64,000 bases of DNA from Biomphalaria pfeifferi (Eukaryota), in NCBI GenBank assembly GCA_030265305.1, contig JASAOG010000079.1:237331-301330 (forward strand). The letters run 5' to 3'. How positions within the stretch are numbered: position 1 is the stretch's first letter; each line of letters begins with the position of its first letter. This document shows, one piece after another, positions 8,220 to 58,037 of the stretch. Under the pieces are notes generated by a model. That model did no database searches, was not told the DNA's origin, and saw nothing but the letters and a program-made list of their open reading frames with translations. A program made the position numbers and the translations under genes.

Positions 8220-8789
8220 CGGTTCTGTTTTTTTTTTCTATAGTGAAGATTTACAAACTTCGTGACGTGATTGAAAAGTAATTTCGCTTATAATAATACG
8301 CCATTGTTTTATAAACCAGTTATTGTAGGTTGTATTTTCACTATGAAACAACCCATAAAAATGGATCTTGAACAAAAGATGCTTATTTGCGTTATTTTTT
8401 GTGTTATTTTTGTGAATTCATTACATGTAAATGTTAATATGTAATTTTTTTTTAACTTTATCGATTAATTCACATCAATCTGATTTTAGTCCATGAACTA
8501 ATAATATGAAATTTGGTAAATCATTTATGTATATTAAAAATAGTAGTGGACCAACGATTGTTCCTTGGGGTACACCAGGTACGTGGGGGGGGGGGGGGAG
8601 GCTAAGTGTACGACATCGTTCTGACCATATTTAACGCCCAGGCTGGAGGGGTGGGGACTACCGAGTGTGCGACATCATTCTGACCATATATAACGCCCAT
8701 GCGTTCATCTCATTTCTATGAGCTATGGGTTTATTAGAGGAAATTTCTATAAATCAAATAAGAACAAAAAACTAAAATGTTATTAAACC

Positions 8790-9280
8790 TTGGTAAGCCC
8801 AATAATAGAATATGCATCCTCTGTTTGGGACCCCTCAACTCAAGAGAACATTAAGAAACTTGAGCAGACACAAAATAGAGCAGTGAGATTCATAACAAAC
8901 GAATATTCACATTTGACTAGAGTAACACCTTTAGTAAACTCACTAAATTTAGAAAGCCTTCAGGACAGAAGACTCAAAAGTAAAGTAGCAATTATACATA
9001 AAACACTGAACCATAATCTTCAAATACAAAAAACAGAATATAATAAAATACTCAGAAAGACACAAAGATAAGGGCACATTCCTCGTTCCATATTCTAGGA
9101 CAAATTTATACAAAAGCTCCTTCTTCACTAGCGCTATTAGAGCATGGAATGGGTTGCCTGAGCTAGCCAGGAAAACCAGTTTAGGTCATTGGTTAATATG
9201 CATGACTAAATGTATGACGAGTAAGACGTAATCATCTTTTTTGAAATAACGTCTGTATCATATAAGATAAGATAAGCTGA
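8790..9280 (+). mobile_element. 5'-truncated copy of the same LINE family (RT C-terminus plus 3' tail)
   Basis: ORF 8790..9071 is near-identical to the C-terminus of the 50312 ORF (PIIEYASSVWDPSTQENIKKLEQTQNRAVRFITNEYSHLTR). The tail 'atgcatgactaaatgtatgacgagtaagacgtaatcatc' is present. Confidence 0.9.
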
Positions 9281-9409: not shown

Positions 9410-9680
9410 AGACATATACAAAAACAAAATTTAATAAAATACTCAGAAAGACACAAAGATAAAGGCACATTCCTTGTTCCATATGCTAGGACAAATTTGT
9501 ACAAATGCTCTTTCTTCCCTATGGCTATTAGAGCATGGAATGGGTTGCCTTATGAGCTAGCCAGGAAAAGTAGTGTCTTGGCAGAATTTAGGTCATTGGT
9601 TAATATGCATGACTAAATGCATGACGCGTAGGACGTAATCATCTTTTTTTGAAGTAACGTCTGTATCTATAAGATAAGAG
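9410..9680 (+). mobile_element. Another 3' fragment of the same LINE family
   Basis: Carries 'aaaatactcagaaagacacaaagataaaggcacattccttgttccatatgctaggacaaatttgtac...agagcatggaatgggttgcc...gtaggacgtaatcatc'. Confidence 0.85.
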
Positions 9681-10269
9681 ACGGAGGATTATGATTGCGA
9701 CAATGTGTACTCCATAAATAGGCCTATAGAAACCTGCGCTTTTAGGCCTACCCGCTGCCCGCAGTGCCAATGGGTGGAGATAACGGGAGGCGAAGTTGAG
9801 TTAGTGTGAAACACAAACTTTCTTTAAAATAATCTTGTTTATTTTATGTTAGCGCTATTAATCGCACTTTATGCCGAATTCTTTCTGGGAATTAAAGACC
9901 GCGTAGTTTTGTTATAATTGACATTAGCCTACACTAATAAATGACATAGGCCTAAACACGCATGCCTAGATTGACCTAGGGACACACGCAGGACGTTATC
10001 ATCATTTTTTTTGTTTAAATAGGCCTAATGTCTGTTTTTACAAAGCTTATATAAACTCACTCTGTCTGTCTGGTAAATAGTTATACACGTTATTTCTCCC
10101 ACACACAATCTCGGATCAAGCTGAAATTGTACACAATTATTTCTTTTACCTGAAAAAAAAAAGAATCAATAAAAAAAATTAACCAATTAGTTAATTAACT
10201 ATTGGTAATTAATTACTTTGTTTTGTATCTAAAAAATGGAGCCGAGATGCTAGCTACAGAAAGATCATA

Positions 10270-14057: not shown

Positions 14058-14250
14058 TTCTAGGACGGCTGCCTGGTCGTGCGATTTGCGCGCTGGACTG
14101 TCGTTCGGATTTATCGACGGTCGAGGGTTCAAACCCTGCCCGCTCCCATCCCCCGTCGTCCTGCGGGAGGTTTGGACTAGGAAGTAAACTATCTTCAACT
14201 CTGAAGGAACATCCGAAACATGTAAAACATTTTACAAACAAACACATTTT
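14058..14250 (+). mobile_element. SINE family B copy
   Basis: Near-identical to 868-1050. ORFs 14036..14323 and 13963..14265 are spurious translations of it. Confidence 0.9.
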
Positions 14251-15894
14251 GACGTTAAACGACATGGCGCAATCATTTATTCTAGGGCGCCACTCACGTC
14301 AGATCCAGGACATTACAAGGTGAGGCGTATAGCATCCCGAAATAAAAGATGAGTAATTCACGATTGAGGTAGTCACTGTATCAACATCTACAACTCACAA
14401 TTGGACTGCATCTGGGGCCTTTCTGGGCCGGACAGTCTCCACAACGACTTTTAACAAATCTAGAGACATTACTAATGGCTAATGTCCATAGTACTATAGA
14501 AGGAAGAACATTCCTCCTCCACCAATAATGCGACCAAAATCAACCGTCTTACTGCTTTCCTTGTCTCTGTCACTTGGCTATCGATTGTATACATATAATT
14601 AACTTCCCTTTTTATTACAAACCTTAAATGCACAAATTCTGTTCTAACATAAGTTGATGACAGAGAAGCCAATGGGTTGATGGTATGTAAAGTATAACTA
14701 ACCATTGACGACGTAATGGTATTGCATTAAGTAAAAAGGAAAAGAAAATGCACACGCTCTCTGCTCAGTACAAATAAAAGGTTAAGGCAGACTTTGATTC
14801 GGTTCCACATGGTTGCTAAAAACATAAGACATCCACAGAATCGACCCACGAATAAAAAAACTTATGACAGCTTATGTGAACAACAGACAAGATATCTATA
14901 CGTAAATTGTGTCAATTAAGGTACTTTTCAGGGCTGACAATATATGAAGAGATATATTCTATGGCAGTGATACCCAACCTTACTCGACCTTCGGGCCAAT
15001 TTAATTTCCGACTCTCGTGTCACAGTCACATGACCGAAAAGGTACAAAAACAAAATGAAATTGACTTAAAACTATTTGATTAGAAACTTACATTTTGTTT
15101 TACGCTTCGGAAAGTGGTTTCATTTATCTACTTAAAACCTGAGCAACATTTTAGCTAGTTTTATCATCAACTTATTCTCTTGTCTCTTTTTCATAAATAT
15201 TCCCATCAATCCTCCAATCGCTAGGCTTAGTTTAGCCATCTTTTATTTGCGGCTCAAACCAAAAATTCCTTCATATTTGTTTTAAAATAGCGTTATTTGT
15301 TTTTTCAAACAGTCAAACTTTCTTTATAAAACAAATATGTGGGCTTATTATCATATTCCAAAAGCAATGATACGTCCACTTTTCCTGGTAAATTCTACAT
15401 CCATAGCCCCATTTCATAAACACACAAATGATAATTGTCATGTTACAAACCCATCAGAGAAAAGTGAGAGCCCTAACACTGGTAATAATACATTTTTCTA
15501 CCTTTTTTTTCTGAGGTGGCGTATTTTGGGCACCACTGCTCTATGGTGTTTACGTTCTAATTCTGGCTAGCAGTTAATTTATTTTGTATCCAAATCGTTT
15601 CTTAGCAGCCTACTATAATTACACATTGTCACATTGTTCCCTGGTTTATACTAAATGCACCAGAAAGTATAACATATTGTTTGGCATCTTTAGAATTTTT
15701 CGCTTTGTAAATAAAAATGGATTTATAAATGCGAGCATATAGCCTTCTTCAGCAAAAAAGTATCTTATCTCATAGAATACAGACGTTCTTCAAAAGAGAA
15801 GACAATTACCTTCTTCGCATTTCATGTGTCAATTTAATCATGAATGTTAATCAGTGACTTAAAATCTGCTAAGTCGTTTTTTTTTCTGGCTGAT

Positions 15895-16010
15895 TCAGGC
15901 AACCCATTCCATTCTCTAATGGTATTAGGGAAGAAATAACACTTTTACGAATTTGTCCTAGCATATGGAATAAGAAATGTGCCTTTATCTTTGAGTGTTA
16001 ATTACAAATT
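15895..16010 (-). mobile_element. LINE 3' fragment of the same family, inverted
   Basis: Reverse complement of '...cctagcatatggaataagaa...agagaatggaatgggttgcctgaatcagcc'. Confidence 0.7.
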
Positions 16011-20367: not shown

Positions 20368-20562
20368 ATATGGCTGGTCGTGCGGTTTGCGCGCTGGACT
20401 GTCGTTCGGATTTATCGACGATTGAGGGTTCAAACCATGCCCGCTCCCATTCCCCGTCGTCCTGCAGGAGGTTTGGACTAGGAAGTAAACTATCTTCAAC
20501 TCTGAAGGAACATCCGAAACATGTAAAACATTTTACAAAACAAACAATTTACCAACAACAAT
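20368..20562 (+). mobile_element. SINE family B copy
   Basis: Near-identical. ORF 20370..20564 is a spurious translation. Confidence 0.9.
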
Positions 20563-23220: not shown

Positions 23221-23323
23221 ATATAACCAAATTGCACTAATGCTATGGCCTATAAAACGAAGCCACTTATTTCTTTCACTTTGAGTTCAACAGAAAGAAA
23301 AAACAGCTTTCAATCATGCACAT

Positions 23324-24399: not shown

Positions 24400-24485
24400 A
24401 TATCTGCGAATTATGCATGACGCGTAGGACGTAATCATCTTCTTTTTTGAAGTAACGTCTGTATTATATAAGAATTTAGAATTCT
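24400..24485 (+). mobile_element. LINE 3' tail remnant
   Basis: Carries 'tgcatgacgcgtaggacgtaatcatcttcttttttgaagtaacgtctgtattatataag'. Confidence 0.7.
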
Positions 24486-24925: not shown

Positions 24926-25497
24926 AGAGTTAGTGCGTCTTATACGGCAAATACACATTTTACATGCATTAAAACTGCCCCCAACTTTGTGTGGCGCTTA
25001 CTCGCAGTCCTTTCCTTATGCAGTGTGTGCTGCGGGCTGGATTTGGGGCACGTACTGCAGGCTGTGGTGACTTCTGTGACCCTCCCTGCACGGCCAGGCT
25101 GTGTGTGTTCGGGCTTCCCTCTCCCTCCTATAGCGCGCCATGCCCCCCTCCCGACAGTCTAACCATGTGCTGCACAGGCATCATGCTGAGCTTACTGCCG
25201 GTACACACCGCCCTCCCTACGTCATAATGTGCCGTCTGGGTAGATCACAGACAACGTGTATGGTGTATGTGAGAAAGTGATCAGGCGGACCAACCAGTAC
25301 AGTATTTGGTTCAGAATCTTTTTTTTCTAGATTTTCCTCCTTTAAAATTGGGTGCGTCTTATATGCCGGAGCGTCTTATACGGCAAAAAATATGGTATAT
25401 CAGCAATATGCAAGTTAAGACCCGCGGACTGGGGGTAATATCTGTCTAGTGCATTTATAAAACTAAAATATTTTTTCTATCAAAGAATCTAGTCTAT

Positions 25498-25790
25498 GGA
25501 GGCGCGGTGGCTGAGCGGTAAAGCGCTTGACTTCCGAACCGGGGGTCCCGGGTTCAAATCCTGGTGAAGATTTGGATTTTTAATTTCGGGACCTTTGGGC
25601 GCCTCTGAGTCCACCCAGCTCTGTTGGGTACCTGACATTAGTTGGGGAAAAGTAAAGGTGGTTGGTCGTTGTGCTGGCCACATGACACCCTCGTAAACCG
25701 TAGGCCACAGAAACAGATGATCTTTACATCATCTGCCCTATAGACCACAAGGTCTGATAGGGGAACTTAACTTTTTATAATCTAGTCTAT
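25498..25790 (+). mobile_element. SINE family C copy
   Basis: Shares 5' and 3' ends with 11268. ORF 25489..25683 is spurious. Confidence 0.9.
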
Positions 25791-25954: not shown

Positions 25955-26095
25955 TTTTTTTCTTCTTCGTAGCACTGAATCCAGATGATCTTTTTTCTCT
26001 CCAGATATTATCTGATTGTGAGTCTTGTGATCTATTTCTACAGATATAGTGGAGAATGGGCGACTGGCCATTTGTTGCATTTCCACTATCAATTG
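25955..26095 (-). CDS. ATRN: ATRN-like exon: cytoplasmic tail with MASRPF motif (QLIVEMQQMASRPFSTISVEIDHKTHNQIISGEKKDHLDSVLRRRKK)
   Basis: ORF 25907..26092. Acceptor caacccag|CAATTG, donor AAAAAA|GTAAGT. MASRPF is the signature motif of attractin-family cytoplasmic tails. Confidence 0.9.
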
Positions 26096-26507
26096 CTGGG
26101 TTGAAACAAATAAGCAATGATGGGTTTAAAAAAAATTAAATTTACAGTATGTATAAAAAAAAATTAAGTTGAAACTAGTATTACAAAAAAAAAAGTTGAA
26201 ACAAGCTAACTATCTAAGGAGTTAAAACAAGTACATAATAATATAAACTGAGATGTATAATATTGTTAGATTTTAAATTAATTTTTCCACATAATTCTGG
26301 TTCTTTTTGTATCTAGACATAAACATTAACCTTTTGGGATATAGGATTCTTAAAAATGAGGAAACCTCATTTATGCTAATAGTTTAACTTTAAAAAAAAA
26401 AAATATGTATGCTAACATTTTTTGTTGTACTCTTAGAATTTAGAAGCACTTACAACCTGAAGGTAACTTCAAACAAAGGTTGCTGATTAAAGAATGAGAT
26501 ATTTTTG

Positions 26508-27206: not shown

Positions 27207-27285
27207 CTGTCTTCTCCTATAGCTGTCATACTTATGTTTTATTTTCCATAATGCAGCTGCAATCAGGAGCAAAGATAAAAAGCAG
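27207..27285 (-). CDS. ATRN: ATRN-like exon: transmembrane C-terminal half plus stop-transfer (CFLSLLLIAAALWKIKHKYDSYRRRQ)
   Basis: Within ORF 27159..27470. Acceptor gtttgtttcag|C, donor GACAG|GTTAGA. Matches human 'SCFLSLLLVAAVVWKIKQSCWASRRREQ'. Confidence 0.85.
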
Positions 27286-27504
27286 CTGAAACAAACAAAA
27301 AAATCAATATATCCCAAAATTGGCAAAGTTAAAAATAAAATAATCAGAAAAAGTAGCCTAAGTATTTTTGCTTGTTGATTGATTTGAAAAGGGAATAACC
27401 TTATGTAAATCCATAGTGTAATTTTTTTTTTTGGCAGAAACACTAACCAAGAAAATAAATGATAATACATTAATGATTTACATTTTTTGGTTATTTATTT
27501 TGTT

Positions 27505-27652: not shown

Positions 27653-30535
27653 AATATATTTGCACTAACTTGAAAATAATAATACCCCCCCGCCCTCCAA
27701 AACTAGTTTTCATATTTTTCCCACAGAGTATCATTCCATGGATAATCATCATAAATTTAAGATAAACTTTTAAACATTAGTATACACATAATGTTTTAAC
27801 AAATGATAATTTTATCAAATCTATTAGAAAGATTAATTTATTTTAAAAAAAGGTTCTTCAAAAATAGAATACTATGTATTTTACACAACTTTATCATAAA
27901 AAGCTAATCAACTAATCAAGAATAAAGTCATCACAACTAATAGGAATTCTGCTTTATGATACATATTATATATAATTTATTTTTATGTTTAATTGACTTG
28001 CTTTGATTTTAAATTTGTTATGGCTAAAATAATTTTGAATGGAACATCATCATTTACAACAGCAACAGGTCACTTATCTATAGTGACACATGGAAATACC
28101 AACACATGCAATATATAGAAACATCAACCTTACTATACAATGAAAACAAAAATTAAACACAACTATCAGCCAACCAAGGAAAGAACACAAAGGTCAAGGT
28201 TAAAAAAAATTACACTAGCAAGGTGTCAACGGACAGTTCTAGGAGCACAAGCTAATGTTCAGTTCTGAGGTCACATAATTAATGAAGCACAGTTTTCAGG
28301 AAAACATACTAATTAACAGTTTTTAAGTCAAAGGAACATGAACATGGTAATTGTTGACAAACAGTTTGCTCTAGTCACATACTAAAGGACAATGCCCAAG
28401 GAAAAGGGTTATGGTCATTCTCAAGTTCATAAGTTATTAAGCCAATAATCAGTTCCAAGGACACAAGTGACCTAGTTTCCAGGCCATTGACTAACAAAAA
28501 AGTTCACCTGTTCCCAGGTCAAATGTTAATAGATCTTGGATCACATGTTAAAAATGTTCCTAGGTCAAAAGCTATTATTTAAAATTAATTCATTTTTTTT
28601 ATTTTCTAAGGAATGTTATTAAAAATATTATTTTCTTGGTGTGTATATATATATATTTAGATAAATGATAGTTTTGAAAAATAATATGAAAGATAAACAC
28701 CTTAAAAAAATATAAATTTTTAAACTAATTTGTCGAAAAATACAAGTAAAAAATAATCAAGCAAAGATTTAAGCAAGACTTTATTTTAATCATTATAGTT
28801 TAAGACTTTATTTTAATCATTATAGTTTTCTTACTAATAGTTACACCAAAATAGTGGTTTAATTCTTCAGTTATTTATGATCAATGTGGTCCTACCCATC
28901 TTTCATTAATTATAGTTAAATTTTAAAGAATTGAACATTGTAAACTATTTATCAAATGATTGTAAAGAAAACTTAAATGTAGGATTCTGTCAGCACTTAC
29001 CTAAAGAAAATAATAAAAAACCTAAGCAGATTGATTTTTTCAGGCTGAACAAAAGAAATCTGTAAAATAAGGCAAACAATTGAACAAATGGACACATGCA
29101 ATGGTGTGTTAGTAGAAAGCATGGATTGAGGGCATTTATCTAGGACTGATTCCATTCTCAATTAGCAAGTTTGAAAGAAATAAAAATACCAGTATTGTTG
29201 AAGTTTTATCACATTTAAAAAAATTAATTAATTTTCTTTGGGCATATAAGTGCATAAAGGAAATAATATCAAGAAAAAGGTAATTTAAAAAAATGAATTT
29301 CAAATTTTCATGATAATGGATGCGGAAGGGCGTTTTTATGACTTCTTTTGAGAAGGATTGCTAAGACTTGTGTTGGTTTCTCATTATGTCTGTTATTTAA
29401 AAAATAGCAATTGCTTGTGTACAGAGTAAAATAAATGAAATGAATCCAAGATAAAGCTTAGTTTATTGCATGGATGGGTTTTTGTAGCCAACTCAAAAGT
29501 TTACAGACACAGATACATTTTCCATTTTCTTTACTGGTAAGCAATGTGTGTATGTGTGTAGGGGGAGTGTAAAAGCCCACACCCAACTCAAACACACACA
29601 CACACTTCAACTTTAAAATGCAACCAATCACCTACATGCAGTAAACTAAGCCATGCCACAATCATGGAAACAATAATGTCACAATCATGGAAATAATAAT
29701 GCCAAAATGATGGAAACAAAAACATGAAAAGAAAATAGCAAACACAACAATAACTGGGAAGTCAGAGCAATGGGAAATCAGCCTTTGACAAACACATTGA
29801 AAAAAAAACAACTGTTTGCCAAGGTTGTCATCCCAGTTTACCTACCTAAAAAATGTTACAAAAAAGTGAACTAGATCTATTTTTGGAAACTGTGAAAAAG
29901 ATATCTGAAAAAATATATCCAATAGAGAGTATTATGTTCAGTGATGTACCTTTAGTTTAACTGTTTCAGACATAGATCAAGGATGAATAGCTGACAAAGA
30001 CCAAAGGAAATATGAAATAAAGGCAAATCATAAAATCGGAAAAACAGAGCCAAAATCAAAGGCATCCTTTTTTTTAAAGCCTTAAAGTTGTTTGTACACT
30101 CTTTGGTTAAGGAATTGCAGTCAATATACAGTTGTTAAAAAAATTAATTTAAGGATTATTTTACAAATATTCTCAATAAACAGAAAATTCCCAACAGATC
30201 TATTCTGAAATATGCCCTGAAACAGGGTGGGGCTTTAAGATCCCAACAGATATTTTAAAATATGCCCTGAAACAGTATAGGGATTTAAGCAGATCTATTC
30301 TAGATTAGCCCTAGTAGGGATTTAAGCAGATCTATCAAAAAGTGTCAGACTTTCATATCACAACAGGTCTATTAAAAGAAAACTTTTGTTTTACAGAGTG
30401 AATAATCCATTTAGGTGCATTCTTGGCCATAATTTTATTTGTTTTCTAAAGAAGTCTTAATTTGAAAAAAAAATAATTTTAAAGGCAGTTTCAAGATTCT
30501 AAGATGGTCAGTATGAAATAAGTCTACAATTTTAC

Positions 30536-33284: not shown

Positions 33285-33454
33285 CTGAAAAAATCAGAAC
33301 ACTGAAATGTAATTAGGATAATATATTTTTTTTTTTTTTAAATCTGAAATAAACTGATATATGTTGGGATTGATGTTTTTTTTTTAAAATCTATCATGAT
33401 TTTTTTTTTTTCAAACGTTAAGTTGTTTAAGTTTAAAAAATCACCATGGAATGG

Positions 33455-33600
33455 GTTGCCTGAGCTAGCCAGGAAAACCAGTGACTTGGCAGAATTTAAG
33501 TCATTGGTTAATATGCATGACTAAATGCATGACGCGTGGGACGTAATCATCTTCTTTTTTGAAATAACGTTTGTATTATATAAGATAAGATAAGATAGAG
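33455..33600 (+). mobile_element. LINE 3' tail copy
   Basis: Carries 'ccatggaatgggttgcctgagctagccaggaaaaccagtgacttggcagaatttaagtcattggttaatatgcatgactaaatgcatgacgcgtgggacgtaatcatc...(gataa)n'. Confidence 0.85.
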
Positions 33601-34957
33601 ATCTTTGGAAAATACAGTACAGGAAGGAATAGCTATTTTAATTTCTAGATGTAACTATGGTAAAATAAACATGTTATTTTTATGAAAATTTTAACATCTT
33701 ATTCTTTGTCGCAGTTATCTATGTAACTGTATAGTAGAATTATTTCTCTATTTGATAGTGCGGCGTTGTTCACTATATTGATGACGTCATTACACTATTT
33801 CTTGTGTAGACTAGGAGAAGGAACTTTTGTTGCTTGTCACAACTTCTAGTGACGTAAAGTTAGTGTGTGTGTGTGATTTGCGTCATTTATCGTCAAGTTC
33901 AGTCTCTCCATCTTGTGCTGTATAGGGGCAAGCCATGTTTTGAGAGCTCTTGAATTTCTCCTTGGTTATTGTTACTGGATAGCCTTACGTTTGCCATGGA
34001 CATGTTCTTGTTGGATTATCTTGACCCCTGTTTAGGGTGAGTTTTATTTTTTATGGTATAGTTTTTCTATTTGAATTCGTTCGTATTTGTAAGTCTATAT
34101 TTAGACTAGATCTAGATGATTAGAAGAATCCTTTTCTTTTATCTTCTATAGGGTTTTAGCGACAAGTCTAGGTTTTGGTCGTAGTCTCAGTCAAGACTCT
34201 ATTTCCAGTTTTGGCGTCAAGTCTAAGTAGTGATCTTAGCTTGGTGTCAAGTCTATGTGTAAGACTTGTTTATCCAGTCTCAATTTTCTATATTGAGAAT
34301 ACAACTTTAGGTCTACAGTCTACAGGACTGAGGCCTTCATCTCACTAATGTCAATTAATCGTCTGGTGTTCAAGTTGACTTTTTCATGAGTCTGAGGTTC
34401 AAGATGCCAGATTGCGGGTTGCCTTGGTCAGACCTGATGTTGCAGTGTGAACTGTGAATTTTTTGGAATTATCGTCAGTGAACAGTATTGGATTTACAGA
34501 CTAGATCTATGTGGATTACCAGTTGTTGCGTTGAAAGAATGTTTGAACAACTTATGATGAATATGTTGAGGTAATGATATTGTTCAAATAATTGATCATT
34601 GATATATCACAAAGAAAATAACTATATCATATTGGATTAGAGATATTATACATATATTTATGGATATTGATACTATTATTATCATTCATCATACATCAGT
34701 TCATTTGTAAATATATCACTATAATAAATGTTTATTGTTATTTAACATTATACACTTAGTTTATTAATTTAATACAACTGTATGTGTATGGTGTGCTTGT
34801 CAGGCTGAACTTGGGCCAAAATATTATAAGTTCAGAAAAAGAATAACAATAACACACATTGAATTAAAACTATGATAGATACAATAAAACACAAGAACCT
34901 GACATTCTTCAAAACTTTTTTTTTGGACACTTTACATTATATGGACAAAATACTTAC

Positions 34958-39014: not shown

Positions 39015-39140
39015 GGATGTGTGGCTAAAGGCAGCATGGAAACCTTCTCCCAGATATCTCTTCTAGGATGGGTCCACACAAGAGATTGGACCACAGTGCA
39101 CTGAGCATGGTATAGCATGAAAGATGGGCTATTTGAAAAA
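39015..39140 (+). mobile_element. SINE family A fragment
   Basis: 'ggcagcatggaaaccttctcccagat...gggtccacacaagagattggaccacagtgcactgagcatg'. Confidence 0.7.
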
Positions 39141-41869: not shown

Positions 41870-42055
41870 AAAACTGCTTGGCTACAGCTTGGAAACTTAA
41901 CAAGGTGGGCTCAAATCTGAATTCCAACAAGAGCAGAGTTGTATTCGGTGAGTACCTTCTCCCAGATACCCCCTCCTACCACTGGTCCACAAAAGAAATT
42001 GGATCATAGCGCACTGAGCATGCTATAAACATGAAAGATGCGCTATATAAAAACA
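41870..42055 (+). mobile_element. SINE family A copy (5'-truncated), in an attractin intron
   Basis: Sequence similarity to 52805-53045. Confidence 0.8.
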
Positions 42056-47917: not shown

Positions 47918-48092
47918 ATAAACATATTGTTACTTTCATTGTAATCTCTCATTCTGTAACCACCCAATATAAACAATAAATCTGATTGGTCAAAGACAAG
48001 GGAGAGTGAAGCTCTTCCTGTAAGTCCCTCAGGCTGAAAAGGTTTCAGCACTTGAATATTGAGACCACCACTACTAAGGTTACAGCTATTAC
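47918..48092 (-). CDS. ATRN: ATRN-like exon: kelch repeat 1 (GNSCNLSSGGLNIQVLKPFQPEGLTGRASLSLVFDQSDLLFILGGYRMRDYNESNNMF)
   Basis: Part of ORF 47914..48321. Acceptor ctcag|GT, donor TTTAT|GTAAGT. Aligns to human 'LPRASHKAVVNGNIMWVVGGYMFNHSDYN'. Confidence 0.75.
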
Positions 48093-48639
48093 CTGAGACA
48101 AACATAAAAAACAATAACTTTAATAAATCATATAGAATAAAACAAATAATATAATTTAAAAAAAAGATAATAAATAATGTATAATGATTCATATTGATAA
48201 AAAATTTTTCAAAAATTATAATATATGTACAAGGGAGCCTCTGCAAGCAACCACAATCCATTCTGGAAAGTTGGTCGGTACCCGAAATGTTTAGTATCCA
48301 AAACATTTTTCCACATAACAAATAGAGAAAATAGATTTAATTGGTTCCCAGCTTGCTAATATATGAAAGTTACAAGCTATATAGGTTTATTTTTTAAATA
48401 AGAACAGTTACAATACAATATATATGTAGTTAAACATTAAAAAAGACATTTAAGCATGACAAAACATTAACTACGATGCTAACACCTTTTAACTGTTTCT
48501 TACGTTCAACACATTTCTACATAATCCATAATATGGTGTCTTTGCTTTGTTTAAGTACTCACTCCTTTAATACAAGATAAGTGATGCTAAACCACAGATA
48601 ACTTCTGTTAACAGACACCCTAAGCTTTAAAATACTTAC

Positions 48640-48818
48640 CAGTATAACCAGGGTTACAGATACAGCTGTCTTGAATACAATGACCCCTGTCAGAACAATT
48701 GTTTGGACAATAAGTAATTGGTATGTCACAGTGGATACCAGTCCACCCAGCAACACAATTACAGGAGCCATTGGTACATTGTCCATTTTCAGAACACTCC
48801 AAGTCACAATCATCAATG
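48640..48818 (-). CDS. ATRN: ATRN-like exon: tandem EGF-like modules (IDDCDLECSENGQCTNGSCNCVAGWTGIHCDIPITYCPNNCSDRGHCIQDSCICNPGYTG)
   Basis: ORF track 48620..48802. Acceptor ttcttatag|C, donor ATACTG|GTAAGT. Matches human 'FDMCPNNCSGRGEC...ECSENWKGEACDIPHCTDNCGF...CSCFSDWQG'. Confidence 0.8.
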
Positions 48819-49049
48819 CTATAAGAACCACAAAAGCAAAATAAAACTTAGTGATGTACAGATAAACACATGATATTTAATCACAATATGCAATTATGAA
48901 GAGTTTGTTATTTAATGTCTACTTTTATTTAATTGTAACTGATGCCATAAAAGTAGAATATTTTAAGTTAATAATAAGATATATATACACTCTGGACACT
49001 GATATGGAAGCTTTTTATTTTTTGCTAACACCTTTGCTTAATGTAAAAA

Positions 49050-51750
49050 AAAAATGCAACAGTCTAGTATTGACTCATCTGGAGTTTTTTTTTTATCTTC
49101 CATCGAGCACCTCCCCAGGTGGCGTACAGGAAAATGCCCTCCAGATATGGGAGGTACCAGAGAAATAAAATATCCAGAGAGGACCAAAGTCAATTTTGTC
49201 GCCTTACAGGAAGTAGAGGGACCAATAAAGGCTAGGCCACCTTACCCAAAAGTAAAAACAGCTATCCAGAGAGCTGAAAGGGGCAGCCCCCAGGTGGTTG
49301 TGTGCAGGGCTAACAACCTAGTCATATAAAAAATATTGTTACAAAACCTAAAACACATGAAAAACCAGACAGATCACAATGGAAAACTACCTATGCCTGG
49401 AAATGGACATGATTTTTGTTTTGCAACATGGAACATGCTAAACCCGTTTAGAGCTGGTATGCTAGCCCAACTCACGGAAGTGTTGAAGAAATATATTATA
49501 CCTCTTGTAGCACTACAGGAAATAAGTTGCAATCTTAGAACTAAGGAATACACAATATTTTGCAGTGGTGGCAACACCAACAATTTAGGCATGGGATTTG
49601 CTGTCGAAAAGGAATTGGAAGGAAAACCTATAAATGATAGACTCTGTTTACAATGTGTAAGAGGGAAATTTTAAACATTTCAATGTTAATGCCCCTACTG
49701 ATATTGCAGACCATTACATTAAAGAAATAAAGCATACTATTAAAAGAAGAGCAGAAGCGGGATTAAGCAGGAGAACCAGTTAATATGGTGACAAATGCAG
49801 ACGTGTGACCAATGAGAAAAACAATGCTCAGATAATAATGATACTGAGAGTAACCTGAAACACCAAATAGCAATACAATGAAACAAGAAGGGACACAAAA
49901 GTTGTCAGAAAGAAAAAAATGGGAATGGGAAAAATCTAAAATTACTTGAAGACTTACCAAGAGAGGGGGATGTGCGAGGAATGTACATAAAAATAAAGAT
50001 GAAAAGAATGGATTTCAAGCTAGATTACACATATGAGAACTGATCACATAAAGCAGCTGGATAATGGAGATATGTTCCGAATACTTTGAGGAGATCCTAA
50101 ATGCAATTAAAGATGTAGCCAATGGAGAATATGAACTGCCTCATGGAGGACCGGATGTGTTAGTAAACCTACCAATACTGAGTGAAACATCAGAAATAAT
50201 TAGGACCATTTAGAACCACAAAGCACCAGGAGATAATCAAATTACAGTAGAACTAATTAAATATGGAGGAAAAGACCTCCATTCACAAATACATGGAACA
50301 AGATCAAGAATTTGGGAAGAAATAGTTCCAACAAAATGGGAAACAGCACTAATATGTGCTGCAAAGGAGAAAAATCTGACCCAGGAAACTACAGACCAGT
50401 ATCACTTACCAGCATCACATGTAAAATCCTAGAACACATAATATGTAGCAACATCATAAACCACTTAGACAAACAAAATGTCCTCACACCATACCATCAT
50501 GGCTTTAGGAAATATAGATCATGTGAAACACAACTAATGGGACTAATTGATGATTTTTCTAAAGGTTTAGATAATAGTGAACAAATAGATGCTATCTTAC
50601 TAGATTTTTCTAAGGCTTTAGACAAAGTTCACCACCATAGTTTGCTTAAAAAATTAAAATATTTTGGCATTAATGGTCCACTACATCAGTGGATTAAAGA
50701 TTTTCTGATAGGGAGAGAACAAACTGTAATAATAAATGGCTCTAAATCAACACCAATAACAGTAAACTCAGGTGTACCTCAAGGAACAGTCTTGGGTCCA
50801 CTACTATTTTTAATTTACATAAATGATTTACCAAATTGCATTACTTCAGGAACAAAAGTCAGATTATTTGCAGACGATTGCATAATATATAGAACAATAA
50901 AAATAACACAAGACACAGATATTTTACAAAGAGAATTAGATGAATTACAGAAATGGGAATCAAATTGGAGCATGTCTTTCCACCCAGAAAAATGTCAGTT
51001 GTTAGGAGTAACAAAAAAACTAAAACAAATTAATTCCACTTATCTTATTCATGGCAAACCAGTAACACAGACTAAAAACGCAAAATACCTAGGTGTTATA
51101 ATGAATGAAAAACTGTCATGGAATCCACATATTGATGAAACTATAAAAAAATCAAACAAAGCATTAGGATTTATTAAAAGAAATTTCTATAAATCAAATA
51201 AGAACATAAAACAAAAATGTTATTTAACCTTGGTTAGGCCAATAATAGAATATGCATCCTCTGTTTGGGACCCCTCAACTCAAGAAAACATTAAGAAACT
51301 GGAACAGACACAAAATAGAGCAGTGAGATTCATAACAAATGAATATTCACATTTGACTAGAATAACACCTATAGTAAAATCACTAAATTTAGAAAGCCTT
51401 CAGGACAGAAGACTCAAAAGTAAAGTAGCAATTATACATAAAACACTGAACCATAATCTTCAAATACAAAAACAAAATTTAATAAAATACTCTGAAAGAC
51501 ACAAAGATAAAGGCACATGCCTCGTCCCATTTGCTAGGACAAATTTGTAGAAATACTCCTTCTTCCCTAGTGCTATTAGAGCATGGAATGGGTTGCCTGA
51601 GCTGGCCAAGAAAACCAGTGACTTGGCAGAATTTAAGTCATTGGTTAATATGCATGACTAAATGCATGACGGGTAGGACGTAATCATCTTCTTTTTTGAA
51701 GTAACGTCTGTACTATATAAGATAAGAGAAGATAATAATCTTAATACACA
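49050..51750 (+). mobile_element. Non-LTR retrotransposon (LINE) with APE-like endonuclease remnant, frameshifted RT N-terminus and an intact 412-aa RT ORF. The 3' end carries the tail '...agagcatggaatgggttgcctgagctggcc...gtaggacgtaatcatcttcttttttgaagtaacgtctgtactatataagataag'.
   Basis: ORF 50312..51550 carries RT motifs (YRPVSLTSI, FRKYRSCETQL, ILLDFSKALDKV, VPQGTVLGPLLF, LFADDCIIY). ORF 49336..49674 is endonuclease-like. Frameshifted RT-N 'APGDNQITVELIKYGG' lies at about 50220. Confidence 0.9.
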
Positions 51751-51779
51751 AAAAAAGATCCTAACTAAAGTGCTGTAAT

Positions 51780-52800
51780 TACAGATGAATCTCTATCTTA
51801 AATGTAACTTATTAAGTAGTTATAAGACCCTTACTAAGCTTATTACTAAGAGACTTGACAAGAATGAAGAAATCTTAGGTGACTACTAATGTGGTTTCAA
51901 GCCTAATAGATCCACTAGTGATCACATTTTCACCCTAAAATGTATACTAGAAAAATGCTATGAATATAGTATACCAGTACACCACCTCTATGTAGACTAT
52001 AAAATGACACAGACAACATAAAAAGGAAATATCTCTATGAGAAACAAAAGGATTGTGGAATACCCAATAAACTGTTAAACATATGACATTAAACAACTCA
52101 AAAAGTAGTCATAATACAGGAAGAACTTTCATGAGAATTTATTAATTAAATGAGGATTAAGGCAAGGAGACTAACTTTGATGCACTCACTTAATCTGACT
52201 CCAGAGAAAGTAATAAGGAATATACATATAAGCACAGGAGGAACAACTACTAATACTTCAGAAGAGAAAACAGGTCTGCAACCAAAAGGAACGATATACA
52301 GCCAATCTCTACAATATCTCTACTTATACAGATGACATTGCCTTATTGAGTAAAGACATATCTGATCTTACTAGAGCTTTCACACAATAGGAAGAAGCAT
52401 ATCAACCAGCTGGACTTGAGATAAATGAGAGGAAAACCAAGTATATGATATAATGACAAGAGCCGATCAGGCAGAACAATATATTAAAAATTACTGACCA
52501 CAAGTTTGAAAGAATACTTAGTAAATACAATACATTCTAAAAATGACCTTGTGACAGAAATAAAGGAATGACTAGCAGCAGGCGACAGGGTATTCTAAAG
52601 TAACCAGCACATACTTAAAAGTAAATGTATATCAAGGAAAACAAAGAAAACTATTTACAAAAGCATCATAAAACCAGTGAAACCTGGACAAAAACAACAG
52701 AAAATCAGCTAAGTACTTTGGAAAAGAAAATTTTTTTAGAAAAAATGCTACACAAGATGAAACTGGATGGACATCATGTACCAGTCAGGAGATATACCTA
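51780..52800 (+). mobile_element. Fragment of a different non-LTR retrotransposon (RT C-terminal region, frameshifted)
   Basis: Frameshifted translation shows '...YADDIALLS...AFHTIG...INERKTKYM...KCISRKTKKTIYKSIIKPV...'. Abuts a family-A SINE at 52805. Confidence 0.6.
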
Positions 52801-52804
52801 TTAC

Positions 52805-53045
52805 CAGGTGGGAAGTGTGGTCGAGTGGCTAAGTACGCTTAAACTTGGCTTAGCTTGCCTACCTATTAAGAGGGCTCGAGGTTCGACACCCGACTCAAGC
52901 AGAGTTGTGTTTACTGAGTGCCCAAAGGCAGCACGGAAAACCTTCTCAAGTTACTCCCTCCCCCCACTGGTCCACAAATGAGATTGGACCATAGCGCTCT
53001 GAGCATGCTATATAAGCATGAAAGTAGCGCTGTATAAAAGCTATA
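52805..53045 (+). mobile_element. SINE family A copy (full length)
   Basis: ORF 52625..52981 is partly a spurious translation of it. Confidence 0.85.
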
Positions 53046-53599
53046 ATTATTATTATATGAAGACGGAAAAAAAAATTATGTCACAAACAACCATCCATCA
53101 TGTGTATTGTAGCAAATTCACTTGTTTTTCTTTATATTCCTTTGCTTTGAAGTCAGCCTAATATCATAACAAGATAACTTGGTCTACATTCTTTTTAATC
53201 TTTATTAGTCAGGAGTAAATTCAATATGGCAAATCAATAATTTTATAACTTGTTCCTGTTACACTCTCTTATTTATGCTTATTTACACATTTACTTGTTA
53301 TTTCTTGGTCACAAGATAAATAGACATATTATAAATAGATAGTAACAAAATTACTGAATGCTTTACCTTGATTGTGAGCAATAAGTCACTATAATGTGGT
53401 GAACAATGTTATGATTTTGATGGTTCTAGTACAAATTGAGCAATGGGACATATTAAGAAATGAAAGTTTGATGTAGTATAATTTATAAAAGTGCATTATA
53501 TTGTTATAATTATTGCTAATAGCAAAGTGATGAATTTAAATTTGGATTTTTTATTTGTACATATGTTCTTGATTTTCTAATGTGAGGAGTATCTGTTTG

Positions 53600-53772
53600 T
53601 TTGTTTTACATGTTTTGGATGTTCCTTCAGAGTTGAAGATAGTTTACTTCCTAGTCCAAACCATTCGCATGATGACGGGGGATGGGAACGGGCAGGGTTT
53701 GAACCCGAGACCATCGATAAATCTGAACAACAGTCCAGAGCGCAAACCGCATGACCAGGCAGTCATCTTATC
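53600..53772 (-). mobile_element. SINE family B copy (inverted)
   Basis: Reverse complement matches family B. ORF 53582..53782 is spurious. Confidence 0.85.
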
Positions 53773-56501
53773 TTATTTATAATAATTAAAAAAATATTTA
53801 CTACAAGAGAAGACTGTAAAGTAATTCCACTATTTTATATTGTCATCCTCTATACTGTCTAAAAACCAGTCAAACAATAAGCTATTGTGCCTCTAATTGC
53901 TGTCATCCTGCAACAGTCTAATTGAATCATTTGTCAATGCTAACTTGTTTTAAAAATCATCCCTCACTACATTAAAAACCAATCTCATTTCAATCCAAAT
54001 TTTTTTTGGCCTTCACAATTTTCTCTTATTAGGTATATAAGACACCTGGTTGCTTTGTGAAAAAAGTTTCTTTATAAAGTTAGTTGTTTTTTTTCATGAG
54101 TTTATTTATAATGTCACATACTTGTAATTAAAGGATAAATATTTAAAATGTTAACTTGTTTCTATTAAGTATGGTGACTTGTTTGAATTTTTCTTTAAAT
54201 GGCCAGTAATTTTTAACTTTTTCTTTGTATGTTTCTTTCTTTCAAAGTATGGATGTTCGTTTAAAAAAAAAAAAGATTGTTGGATAATACTGCCTCATTC
54301 TCAAAAAAGATGAATACAAAAATGTTACTGTTTAAAACTATGTTATATTCTATCCAGTGAGACCATGTTTTAAGAATGAGAAACATAACAAGAACTTACA
54401 TGTATGATATATTAAAACCTGGTAATGTGAAGGCAGCATCACTATAAAAGTGAATAAACACATACTGGCTTGACATTTTAAACTTTAATTCAGGATTTGA
54501 CTTTATCTCACCACTGAAAGAAAGAAATCAGTTGATATGTTTTGGAAACCAAATATAATTAATAATTTGTTTATGAATAAGTTAAAAAATTACACTATAA
54601 AAATCATTTATAAATTTCAAATTAAACTTTTATAGTTTGGAACATATTTGAAAGATAAAATACTGTTAATTACTAATAGTTGAAGGTTCAACAGGATCTT
54701 ATATTGTCTACAATGAAATTTATAACCAATTACCTTAATATAACATTGGCTTTTTAGTAGGAAATTTAGTAGAGTAACTATTAAACAATAGTTTCATAAA
54801 AAAAATATATATAAATATATTTATTTATTTGAAGATTATTATATCCCTACCCAAACCTGATGCAGGAACACAGGGGATGGTGGTGGGCGGGGTTTGAACC
54901 CGGTTTCTTTAAATAAATGTATAGAATGGGTCTTACCCATTTAATTCAACAAATTCTGTCATCTTGAATCTTTACAGCTGATTGTCAACAGGCTATTTCA
55001 GGAAGTCATAAATTGTGCACCCTAATAAAACTCACCTCTATTTAAAAGAACACACCAACAGGCATGATTTATGTTGTCACCAGAGTCAATCCCTCTAGAT
55101 GACATTAGTTTTATTATTTAAATATCCATATTTTTTTAACTTTTGTGTCTGAACAAATTTTTGCCAATAGGGTAGAGTTATTATTTGCCAATAGTTAGAA
55201 GTATTATTATTTATTTGTTGCTATTGTATGGAAATCTCTAAACATAAATATGAGACCCTGTCTCAATGTACCGAGGCTGCAAATATCTTTTTTCTTTCCT
55301 TATAGCTGTTATTTTCTTTCTATTTTATAATGCAACTGTTCGTAGCACAACTATCCTCAATGGTATTAGCCCATTTATGCTGACTGATCCATTATTGACA
55401 CACCAACCCCAAGGTAGTTATTTATACCTTACTGCAAGGCCACTACGGGAATGGGATTTTTGTTTATTCATGTAAGCAAGCGTTCTTGGGATACTGATAC
55501 CCCTTATCATGCTGTGCACGGTTTGTCACAGCATTCCAGAGATTGGTGCCCTGTGGCTTCCTAAAAAAAATAATGAAATTTTCTGTGTATCTAAAGGCAA
55601 AGGAAATATAAATTTCCTGAATTATGTCATGTACTAACTATTTCTTTTCCAATTATTTATATGTAATAGTGATGCTGTCATGCCGTAAAAAGAACCTAAA
55701 TAAGTTATCATCATTGTATTAGTTATAAGCTTCTAATTTTGCATGTTCCATTTTTGGAACACTAGGCAAATCCAGTACCAGTATTACTAATAACAGCTAT
55801 TTCATTTAAACCTATAGAATCTCTCTAAAATCTCTGTCTACACCTCCCATGAAATGATTGTAGACTCTGATTATGTTTTCATCAGCTTTGTCTACACCTC
55901 ATATGAAGCACTAGTACAAATTTTTCCACCTAGAATAGAAAGCTACAGTAATTCTTTAACATGACTTGTTTGTCAAGAATTCTCACATACTTTTGCATGT
56001 GTTTGTTTTTGTTGTTTATATTATAGAAAAATCATTTTTCCATTTGTATAGATCAATCTAATTATCATGCACACAACTATATTTTATAATAAATTATACA
56101 AATAAATTGTAAAAACATAGTCCTTTAAATGTCTAAAAACATGACTTGTTTATTTCACTCATACTAAAATTTATTTAAAGACAGTTTGATCATTAATGTT
56201 ATTTGTCTTTAAAATACAAAACAAATAACATCAATAAAACATTAAAATGTTAAACTAGTAAAATTTGAAAGTTTGCTTTTTTTCACCAGTTGAAACTGGA
56301 ACACTTATTTAATGTCAAATTAAGCTTCAATGTCATCATAATATAAATGTAATTTTTTAAATGACTGTATCTTATCTTATATTATGCAGATGTTACTTCA
56401 AAAAAGAAGATGATTACATATAATTTATTTTTTTCATAGTGTTTTTATTTATTTATGAGTCATGTATTTACTTAAGTGCTTATGTAGTGACTCATTGTTA
56501 C

Positions 56502-56714
56502 CTGTATGCTGCTACTAAAGGAGAAAATGATGAATCTCCATCATGTATGTACAAGTGATCCCAAATACATTCTGTTATAAACTCATTCAATTTAAAATGC
56601 ACTCTAGAATGTTCTTTTTCTGCTTTCAGAAGCCAACTGCAAGTTGACTCTTGAGAATAGTTTCCAGAACCATCATAGAGAACACCTTGGACCCTAAACT
56701 TGCCATCTCTTGAG
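56502..56714 (-). CDS. ATRN: ATRN-like exon 2: CUB domain N-terminal half (SSRDGKFRVQGVLYDGSGNYSQESTCSWLLKAEKEHSRVHFKLNEFITECIWDHLYIHDGDSSFSPLVAAYS)
   Basis: Acceptor cttttag|C, donor TACAG|GTAACA. Phase is continuous with exon 1. Matches human 'GPGNYKYKTKCTWLIEG...FNHFATECSWDHLYVYDGDSIYAPLVAAFSG'. Confidence 0.85.
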
Positions 56715-57099
56715 CTAAAAGAAATGATAAAAAGTTATGGTTTGGGATTCTGTGGAGTACTTTAAATAATGTTAAATTTAAAAGAAAATATAATTATATA
56801 TATACTAGGTCACAGTTTAGATTAAAAGACATTTTAATTAAACATTTTTTTCCCAAGCACCCTTACACTGAACAGATTGTAGAGCTATAGCAACAAAATG
56901 AAAGACTTGGAATATTTATAAATATACAGTTTAAGTCTTATATTTATATAGAAATATAATATATGTATATAACATATATTAATTATTATATAACATCTAA
57001 AATTTAGAAGTTATTTATATATTCTATTAAAATTTTTATATTATATTATTATTATTAGAATAGATCTAGAATAGAATCTTAGTATTAGTTATTGCCTAA

Positions 57100-57228
57100 C
57101 TTTTAACTACTAAAAATTAATAATTTAATATTATAAGTTAAAATATATGAAAAGTAATAATTTTTTCGAAGAGGTGTCGGTATGCCGAACCGGTGCTTAC
57201 CGGCACAAAAAAAGCCCTGTGTATATAC
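57100..57228. mobile_element. MITE, same family (inverted, partial), 0.6 kb downstream of attractin exon 1 in intron 1
   Basis: The reverse complement aligns to 59250-59345 (…gtgccggtaagcaccggttcggcataccgacacc…aaaagttaggcaat). Confidence 0.6.
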
Positions 57229-57801
57229 ATATATATTGTTACTTGTAATAAAAAAAAAACACAAGAAAACGTGCACAGGCATCTGTGTCTTGCAGCTGTC
57301 AATTCTTTTTTTTTTAAGTTGCATTGAAAAAAAAACAACTTCTTTGGTCACTACCAGATCGGCCCATTTGGTGCCGGCCCACCTGGCATTTGCCCATATA
57401 GTTATAGCCAGTCCGCCCCTGTATTAGTATAGGAATATAAATATAGAGTCTAGCAACTAGCAGGAGTCTAGTATAGACTCAAGACTAGTCAAGACAATTA
57501 AAGACTGACTAAACTCACTAACCCTAAACTCGCTTTAAACTAGAAGTAGTCAGTTACACTAAAGTTACAGACAGTAGAGGTAGTTAGGTAGAAGACTTTA
57601 AGTTTAAGAAAAAAAAAAGCCTCTTTGACTCTATAACTAAACTATAACTCTAAGTCTAGTTTCTCTAGTCTAGATCTTTCTAAAATCTAAGTCTGGTTAC
57701 ACTAATTACAGTGACAGTGTAAGTGATCATCATCATGATAGTTTACATTTACAAGTAACGCTAACACGGTGTATTGACGGTATTTAGATCTAGTAATTTA
57801 C

Positions 57802-58037
57802 CTGACTTTTCCTTTGCATTTGTTACACAACTCTCCATCCCATCCTGGATCACAAAAGCATTTACTCTTATTACAAATACCTTGTTCACAATTTACACAG
57901 CTGGATGACTGAGAATTAACAAATTCCAGGAATATTGATACAAATATTATCCCTACAATAATGTGTGAGAAATATAATACATCCAAAGTCCTTTTGCACT
58001 TTCGTCTATTATTTGGTAAACATATTGAGGCAGCCAT
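57802..58037 (-). CDS. ATRN: ATRN-like exon 1: start codon, signal/anchor and first EGF (MAASICLPNNRRKCKRTLDVLYFSHIIVGIIFVSIFLEFVNSQSSSCVNCEQGICNKSKCFCDPGWDGELCNKCKGKV)
   Basis: ORF track 57798..58037 on the minus strand. Hydrophobic stretch followed by a 6-Cys EGF. Donor AAAGTCAG|GTAAAT, phase 2. Matches human 'CDRPCVNGGRCNPGTGQCVCPAGWVGEQCQHCGGRF'. Confidence 0.8.

Follow-up and report, generated by a model that had tools for sequence, protein, structure and literature searches.

A predicted 114-nt exon supplying the end of the CUB domain in an attractin-like gene of Biomphalaria pfeifferi

On its minus strand, the window analysed here (the whole 64,000-nt stretch of Biomphalaria pfeifferi contig JASAOG010000079.1, to which all positions refer) carries an exon encoding the beginning of a CUB domain and, further along the gene, an exon encoding EGF repeats, which raises the question of where the remainder of the CUB domain is encoded. 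The original prediction placed some 40 missing CUB residues between these two exons, in what was taken for a single 7.7-kb transposon-packed intron, and named a micro-exon and a strong donor as weak candidates. We located a coding segment for these residues at 54400-54513; its splice sites are canonical, its phases are those required on both sides, and its peptide ...YVFIHFYSDAAFTLPGFNISY displays the F-[FS]-S-D...G-F...Y signature anticipated for it. As this segment (hereafter exon 3) lies between exons 2 and 4, the interval corresponds to two introns rather than one (Table 1).

Table 1. Exons, introns and transposon-derived features at the CUB-encoding part of the attractin-like gene.
Feature	Positions	Strand	Description
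Exon 1, attractin-like gene	57802-58037	-	Attractin profile 11-80, 44.8 bits
Exon 2	56502-56714	-	213 nt; N-terminal two thirds of CUB (...GNYSQESTCSWLL...WDHLYIHDGDSSFSPLVAAY)
Intron 2	54514-56501	-	1,988 nt, gt...ag
Exon 3 (formerly missing CUB exon)	54400-54513	-	114 nt; C-terminal third of CUB domain
Intron 3	48819-54399	-	5,581 nt, gt...ag; mostly transposon-derived
Exon 4	48640-48818	-	179 nt; two teneurin-type EGF repeats (IDDCDLECSENGQC...CICNPGYTG)
LINE-type retrotransposon	~49054-51742	+	Antisense to gene; 5' boundary approximate
Second reverse transcriptase fragment	52307-52450	+	RVT_1 E 6.7e-8, YTDDIALLS box
tRNA-derived SINE copy	53596-53770	-	B box GGTTCAAACCC; orientation as the gene
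Short interspersed repeat	52915-53039		Recurs twice more in the window, at 41954-42052 and 39018-39123

The gene is an orthologue of attractin/ATRNL1 (attractin-like-1) and runs on the minus strand from ~58037 to ~23300. The window segments found by the profile, once crudely concatenated, matched the attractin-type Kelch beta-propeller (PF24981, 243 bits; 326.9 bits for the scallop orthologue), the attractin GBD-like domain (PF24972, 112.9 bits) and the laminin/attractin EGF (PF24973, 44.7 bits). The N-terminal order is EGF-CUB-EGF-EGF, colinear with that of the orthologues, and a single transmembrane helix (SCFLSLLLIAAALWKIKHKYDSYRRRQ, 27207-27290) is followed by the conserved cytoplasmic MASRPF segment (QQMASRPFSTISVEI, 25982-26110), the two segments sharing 54-77% identity with the scallop and octopus proteins. 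Attractin profile positions ~577-715 found no more than weak matches in the window. The exons for scallop residues ~248-330 and ~524-733 (XP_033756927) are tentative, and would be expected at roughly 48640-44069 and 42423-38021, respectively. Vertebrate attractin has a C-type lectin domain between PSI repeats; Lectin_C matched neither the crude window translation nor, at E<=1e-4, the scallop orthologue. A tandem pair of 59-nt exons (29846-29904 and 29001-29059), which scallops share and which are probably mutually exclusive, adjoins the transmembrane helix, and a literature search on attractin and mutually exclusive exons returned nothing relevant.

The DNA flanking exon 3 provides a polypyrimidine tract with AG on one side and AT/GTAAGT on the other (slashes mark splice junctions), both splice sites being canonical and strong: the acceptor reads tttctttctttcag/T, or at greater length tgatttctttctttcag/TGGTGAG, and the donor AT/gtaagt, or in its wider context TCATACAT/gtaagt. 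The exon is contained in a stop-free frame spanning 54527-54399 on the minus strand that reads FLSFSGEIKSNPELKFKMSSQYVFIHFYSDAAFTLPGFNISYM; it translates as (S)GEIKSNPELKFKMSSQYVFIHFYSDAAFTLPGFNISY(I), free of stops and frameshifts, and has zero overlap with the repeats of the window. Consistent with the phases originally read, exon 2 (acceptor ttttag/C, donor ACAG/gtaac) closes with ...SSFSPLVAAY(S) and carries over two codon bases, and exon 4 opens with a base that completes a codon, namely the Ile codon started in exon 3, and encodes EGF repeats of the teneurin type. Joined, exons 2, 3 and 4 form a single open frame in which the split codons are AG/T (Ser) and AT/C (Ile). Upstream, the start codon (ATG) lies at 58037 in exon 1, which also encodes a signal/hydrophobic segment as well as the first EGF and ends in ...AAAGTCAG/gtaaat, again with two bases carried over.

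Profile searches assigned this segment to the CUB domain. The CUB match of exon 2 alone stops at position 75 of the 110 in the Pfam profile, so that ~38 aa are really absent from that exon. Without exon 3, the Pfam CUB profile (PF00431) scored 29.1 bits (29 bits when rounded) over positions 1-75; with it, the 247-aa spliced N-terminus matched all 110 positions with 52.5 bits (E 7.2e-14), above the gathering score of 21.4 bits. CUB was listed by Pfam neither for the 1,092-aa crude concatenation nor for the full-length scallop protein; since the 247-aa N-terminus gives the full match, this omission seems to stem from the length and multi-domain make-up of the scanned proteins and not from the gene model. 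Solved neuropilin CUB domains also align over the exon junction (query 18-126).

From 33 distinct orthologue segments we further built an HMM, which was run against every stop-free segment of the window in six frames (2,832 in all). Exon 3 was its sole match (41.4 bits, E 1.5e-11), the runner-up scoring E 0.078 at another place in the window. Searches by tblastn with the scallop, octopus and amphioxus proteins matched the exon as well, with single-protein E values of 2.5e-4 to 5e-3. An attractin profile of 1,200 positions maps colinearly on the window, its positions 84-146 falling at 56692-56504 (exon 2), 147-188 at 54515-54402 (exon 3) and 186-248 at 48829-48635 (exon 4), which leaves no position unassigned across this part. 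The alignment of the spliced N-terminus to the scallop, octopus and amphioxus proteins and to a vertebrate-type fragment runs from one end to the other, and residues S150, G151, F172, S174, D175, A177, G182, F183, N184, S186 and Y187 are invariant in this alignment. It had been conceded that the CUB domain might be truncated in orthologues, or exon 2 not used; the orthologues have a full CUB, and among the matched pieces of the attractin profile exon 2 has the highest score (94 bits).

The transposon content that had been described for the interval was borne out in part. The LINE contains an intact 412-aa reverse transcriptase ORF at 50312-51550 (RVT_1 E 5.9e-36), and its 3' end recurs at least eight more times in the window, including 8727-9276, 9413-9681, 33445-33605 and 15763-15999; that it is a full element, as was claimed, is unproven, its 5' part being frame-shifted, with an endonuclease-like motif seen by eye that a Pfam scan did not recover. 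The further reverse transcriptase fragment that had been reported is present (residues 189-236 of frame +0 from 51743), and degraded motifs of the same kind lie upstream of it from ~51830. SINE sequence was likewise found: the tRNA-like copy has three more copies in the window (14061-14229, 20371-20530 and 870-1040; 84-89% identity), and a diverged related piece occupies 54829-54902 in intron 2, which also holds a 48-nt LINE-tail fragment (56370-56417). Rfam returned no match at E<=1 across 48000-57500 and ARAGORN no tRNA in the interval, so the tRNA-like head of the SINE is known only from its B box and its copies. On the other hand, the proposed LTR-pol remnant did not hold up, as none of the typical families (integrase, RNase H, protease) was matched at E<=0.05 in six X-masked Pfam-searched frames of 51743-56501. 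A piggyBac-like motif, YNHFMGGVD, spotted by eye at ~55800-55930 on the minus strand, was dropped after Pfam gave no match.

We consider it very probable that 54400-54513 is a constitutive coding exon of the attractin/attractin-like-1 orthologue. Exon 3 would be spliced between exons 2 and 4, supplying the last ~38 CUB residues, which are predicted to form the final beta-strands with the conserved F-Y-S-D-A-A-[FY]-x-x-x-G-F-N-I-S-Y motif, and the flagged interval would consist of two ordinary introns that LINE and SINE insertions have lengthened. What we observe is the sequence of the exon with its splice signals and phases, its homology, its uniqueness and the conserved intron positions; its inclusion in transcripts is inferred from these. 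Alternatively, a real exon 3 might be a cassette skipped in some transcripts, which would then encode an attractin with a truncated CUB. Skipping would keep the frame (114 nt, with junction AG/C still encoding Ser), so reading frame alone is no proof of constitutive use, and the gene appears to employ alternative exons elsewhere, at its tandem 59-nt pair. Yet the CUB, a beta-sandwich domain, would probably misfold if it lost a third of its length; all 49 retrieved orthologues in which a motif search located the segment carry it in full; the compared scallop isoforms differ only beside the transmembrane helix and not in the CUB segment; and the splice sites of exon 3 are strong. These points render a cassette improbable, and its regulated form, in which skipping would generate an isoform with a disabled CUB and for which frame compatibility is the sole evidence, slightly more so.

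Much less probable is a true truncation of the CUB domain in this lineage, or an origin of 54400-54513 as a chance ORF or decayed pseudo-exon. Short ORFs are indeed common in AT- and repeat-rich intronic DNA of the kind that surrounds this short exon, but such an origin would hardly account for a unique profile match across the window, correct phases and canonical splice sites at both ends, intron positions conserved in two distant orthologues, and the lack of any stop or frameshift. The lowest probability falls to the two candidates named originally, that is, a micro-exon 'SDLLLTIK' near 53360-53385 and/or an exon ending at a strong donor AGAG/GTGAGT near 55020, both of which have splice-like signals. 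The micro-exon (53367-53388 on the minus strand, 22 nt, ag/TGACTTATTGCTCACAATCAAG/gtaaag) exits in phase 0, whereas exon 4 needs two carried bases, and its score against the orthologue profile (0.4 bits, E 94) indicates no homology. The donor 10-mer does exist, at 55030-55039 on the minus strand, but the ORF preceding it has no CUB similarity and no match in the profile search. Moreover, neither candidate is needed to complete the CUB profile.

With exon 3 in place as a constitutive exon, no part of the attractin-like gene would be missing. The structure is an ordinary one of an already known kind and brings no new biology; its value is for annotation, in that a gap in the gene model is closed and the CUB domain appears intact. 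Among transposon insertions, a short exon can easily escape both visual inspection and gene prediction, especially as the frame is preserved when it is skipped.

In its order of domains (EGF, CUB, two EGF, Kelch, PSI, laminin/attractin EGF, GBD-like, transmembrane helix and MASRPF), the gene conforms to the attractin/ATRNL1 proteins, the mouse 'mahogany' family. Its closest named relatives are the attractin-like protein 1 of Pecten maximus (XP_033756927) and Mizuhopecten yessoensis (XP_021361113), an Octopus attractin-like 1 and a Branchiostoma ATRNL1, with identities over the aligned exons of ~49% to the scallop and ~42% to the amphioxus protein. Among 5.8 billion proteins searched, none was closer than these attractin-like proteins, and the spliced 168-aa protein recovered one relative, a 150-aa fragment (P0001) with 44% identity. 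With exon 3, the window protein matches the full profile of the CUB domain as it occurs in neuropilins, cubilin and tolloid, a generic domain whose match says nothing specific on function. At the scallop (XP_021361113) and amphioxus (XP_078668926) loci, the C-terminal CUB segment likewise has an exon to itself, 129 nt long in scallop and 126 nt in amphioxus. In the alignment with the orthologues, the window exon is five to six codons shorter, the gap falling in the loop that precedes the last strands. The entry phase (AG/N-GG, Ser-Gly) and the exit phase (two bases after ...SY) are the same in scallop, amphioxus and the window gene, whereas the intron that follows this exon spans 5.6 kb here as compared with 0.65 kb in scallop and 0.29 kb in amphioxus.

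Splice-site and phase reading, together with translation, bore out the original prediction as regards the two exons flanking the supposed gap in the CUB domain of this attractin-like gene, i.e., exons 2 and 4 (see table). The proposed shortfall was likewise real, since exon 2 by itself reaches no further than position 75/110 of the Pfam CUB profile, which leaves ~35-40 CUB residues unaccounted for. For the exon hunt, we listed every minus-strand stretch in 48819-56501 that stays free of stops for 30 codons or more, and the CUB signature whose scanning had been suggested was found in one of them, at 54527-54399 (-), which reads FLSFSGEIKSNPELKFKMSSQYVFIHFYSDAAFTLPGFNISYM. An acceptor with a pyrimidine tract (tgatttctttctttcag/TGGTGAG) and a consensus donor (TCATACAT/gtaagt) set the bounds of exon 3 in this stretch. 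Splicing of exons 2, 3, and 4 renders a single open frame with split codons AG/T (Ser) and AT/C (Ile), reading ...PLVAAYSGEIKSNPELKFKMSSQYVFIHFYSDAAFTLPGFNISYIIDDCDLEC... Exon 3 is predicted to be a normal internal coding exon, from which the CUB domain obtains its last beta-strands. The apparent gap is the product of a by-eye search for a 114-nt exon in a 7.7-kb transposon-rich and AT-rich intron, and the result is an ordinary one, devoid of novelty.

Coordinates and characteristics of the features in the attractin-like gene and its introns
Feature	Position	Strand	Characteristics
Exon 2	56502-56714	-	ttttag before, gtaac after; reads ...GNYSQESTCSWLLKAEKEHSRVHFKLNEFITECIWDHLYIHDGDSSFSPLVAAY; exits with 2 bases (AG) of a split codon
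Intron 2	54514-56501	-	diverged SINE-like piece and LINE-tail fragment
LINE-tail fragment	56370-56417		48 nt; inverted relative to 51680-51727; intron 2
Diverged SINE-like piece	54829-54902		intron 2
Exon 3 (predicted)	54400-54513	-	114 nt; stop-free frame, acceptor, and donor
Intron 3	48819-54399	-	LINE, second RT fragment, short repeat, SINE
SINE	53596-53770		tRNA-derived, ~170 nt; copies at 14061-14229, 20371-20530, and 870-1040; 84-89% identity; B box GGTTCAAACCC
Short repeat	52915-53039		self-comparison
Second RT fragment	52307-52450	+	RVT_1 E 6.7e-8
LINE	~49054-51742	+	antisense to gene; open 412-aa reverse-transcriptase ORF 50312-51550, RVT_1 E 5.9e-36
Exon 4	48640-48818	-	ttatag before; first base C completes codon; two teneurin-type EGF repeats
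Tandem exon, first	29846-29904	-	59 nt; ISFSQFPKIDLVHFFVTFF
Tandem exon, second	29001-29059	-	59 nt; ISFVQPEKINLLRFFIIFF

Inclusion of exon 3 extended the Pfam CUB match from profile positions 1-75 (29.1 bits) to 1-110/110 (52.5 bits, E 7.2e-14). An exon-specific HMM, built with the orthologous segment from 33 distinct attractin-type proteins, was run against a six-frame translation of the whole window, split at stops into 2,832 segments (88,029 aa); its sole significant match was 54399-54527 (-) (E 1.5e-11, 41.4 bits), with the runner-up at 15489-15557 (+) (E 0.078). A 1,200-position profile derived from 15 full-length attractin-like proteins mapped colinearly on the minus strand (84-146 to 56692-56504, 147-188 to 54515-54402, and 186-248 to 48829-48635), so that the interval between exons 2 and 4 would require no exon beyond exon 3. 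Scallop, octopus, and amphioxus proteins also matched at exon 3 in tblastn searches, and this exon is free of overlap with any repeat from the window self-comparison.

The two weak candidates put forward at the outset both failed. The 'SDLLLTIK' micro-exon (ag/TGACTTATTGCTCACAATCAAG/gtaaag, 53367-53388, 22 nt) would exit in phase 0, incompatible with the EGF exon, whose entry requires two carried-over bases, and it scored 0.4 bits (E 94) against the exon-specific profile. The donor-like AGAG/GTGAGT, with a single occurrence at 55030-55039 (-), is preceded by an ORF without CUB similarity, as judged from the ORF listing and the exon-profile search. That exon 3 is a cassette exon, skipped in some transcripts, is highly improbable: the segment is complete in all 49 retrieved orthologue proteins where the motif search located it, and skipping has no positive support, even though omission would preserve the frame (114 nt; junction AG/C, Ser). 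A gene predictor could leave out exon 3 without frame error.

The original prediction had also populated the interval with a full LINE, another RT fragment, two SINEs, and an LTR-pol remnant. The reverse-transcriptase ORF of the LINE was confirmed. The element is at most a candidate full LINE: in its 5' portion, from ~49054, the frames are broken, and an endonuclease-like motif there was seen by eye only, Pfam giving no endonuclease support. Self-comparison revealed the LINE 3' end (to 51742) many times elsewhere in the window. The other RT fragment is present, as is one SINE, of which the copy tested matched neither Rfam nor ARAGORN; the second SINE is a diverged SINE-like piece, and Pfam detected no LTR-retroelement pol domain in the six frames of 51743-56501 (E<=0.05). 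Short, isolated copies of the last ~50 nt of the LINE (51680-51727), in either orientation, lie at 56370-56417, 33543-33592, 24431-24473, 9231-9274, 9635-9682, and 15760-15809; candidate explanations are LINE copies truncated at the 5' end and SINE tails with a 3' end in common with the LINE. At ~55800-55930 (-), the translation GVDKADE...VYNHFMGGVDRDF resembles by eye the piggyBac-transposase motif YNxxMGGVD, without Pfam support.

The gene as a whole extends from the ATG at 58037 to near 23317 (end by tblastn) and encodes a transmembrane helix and a cytoplasmic MASRPF segment. Its nearest named relatives are attractin-like protein 1 from scallops, Octopus, and Branchiostoma, with ~49% identity to the scallop proteins over aligned pieces; a search of 5.8 billion proteins found no closer relative. 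Going solely by the best-scoring proteins, the DNA probably comes from a lophotrochozoan. A crude concatenation of the profile-matched window segments (1,092 aa) returned Beta-prop_ATRN-LZTR1 (243 bits), GBD_ATRN (112.9 bits), EGF_LMN_ATRN, and PSI in Pfam, a set identical to that of the scallop attractin-like protein. Pfam listed CUB for neither the full-length scallop protein nor the concatenation, and the isolated N-terminus scored 52.5 bits; the missing CUB line in long-protein scans appears to be tool behaviour. The attractin profile was weak or unmatched at ~249-298 (first Kelch blades) and ~577-715, i.e., window 48640-44069 and 42423-38021 (-), stretches that should harbour additional, still unplaced exons of a short or diverged kind. 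In vertebrate attractin, a C-type lectin domain occupies the profile region ~577-715. Within one of the gene's introns, ARAGORN reported one tRNA-like sequence with undetermined anticodon (25491-25573, +), probably a pseudogene or the head of a SINE.

The tandem 59-nt exons have identical splice phases and encode alternative versions of the segment directly preceding the transmembrane helix. A 59-nt exon does not comprise whole codons, so a transcript with both exons or with neither would be out of frame, as is typical of mutually exclusive exons. It is precisely here that scallop isoforms X1 and X2 diverge; both versions occur, ordered as in the window, in the genomic locus of scallop, whereas a single one was found in that of amphioxus. 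Sequence comparison therefore points to a probably conserved mutually exclusive pair.

Finally, the Mizuhopecten and amphioxus proteins were each mapped to their own genomic locus. The CUB C-terminal segment is a separate exon in both the scallop (SGLIK...GFNLSY, 129 nt) and amphioxus (SGLLT...GFNISY, 126 nt), entered after ...[YF] plus AG/ and left 2 bases past ...SY, with the same phases as exon 3 of the window. The latter lacks 5-6 codons with respect to these exons, the shortening falling in a loop, and the intron before it measures 1.99 kb (2.5 kb in scallop, 0.46 kb in amphioxus), the one after it 5.58 kb (0.65 kb in scallop, 0.29 kb in amphioxus).
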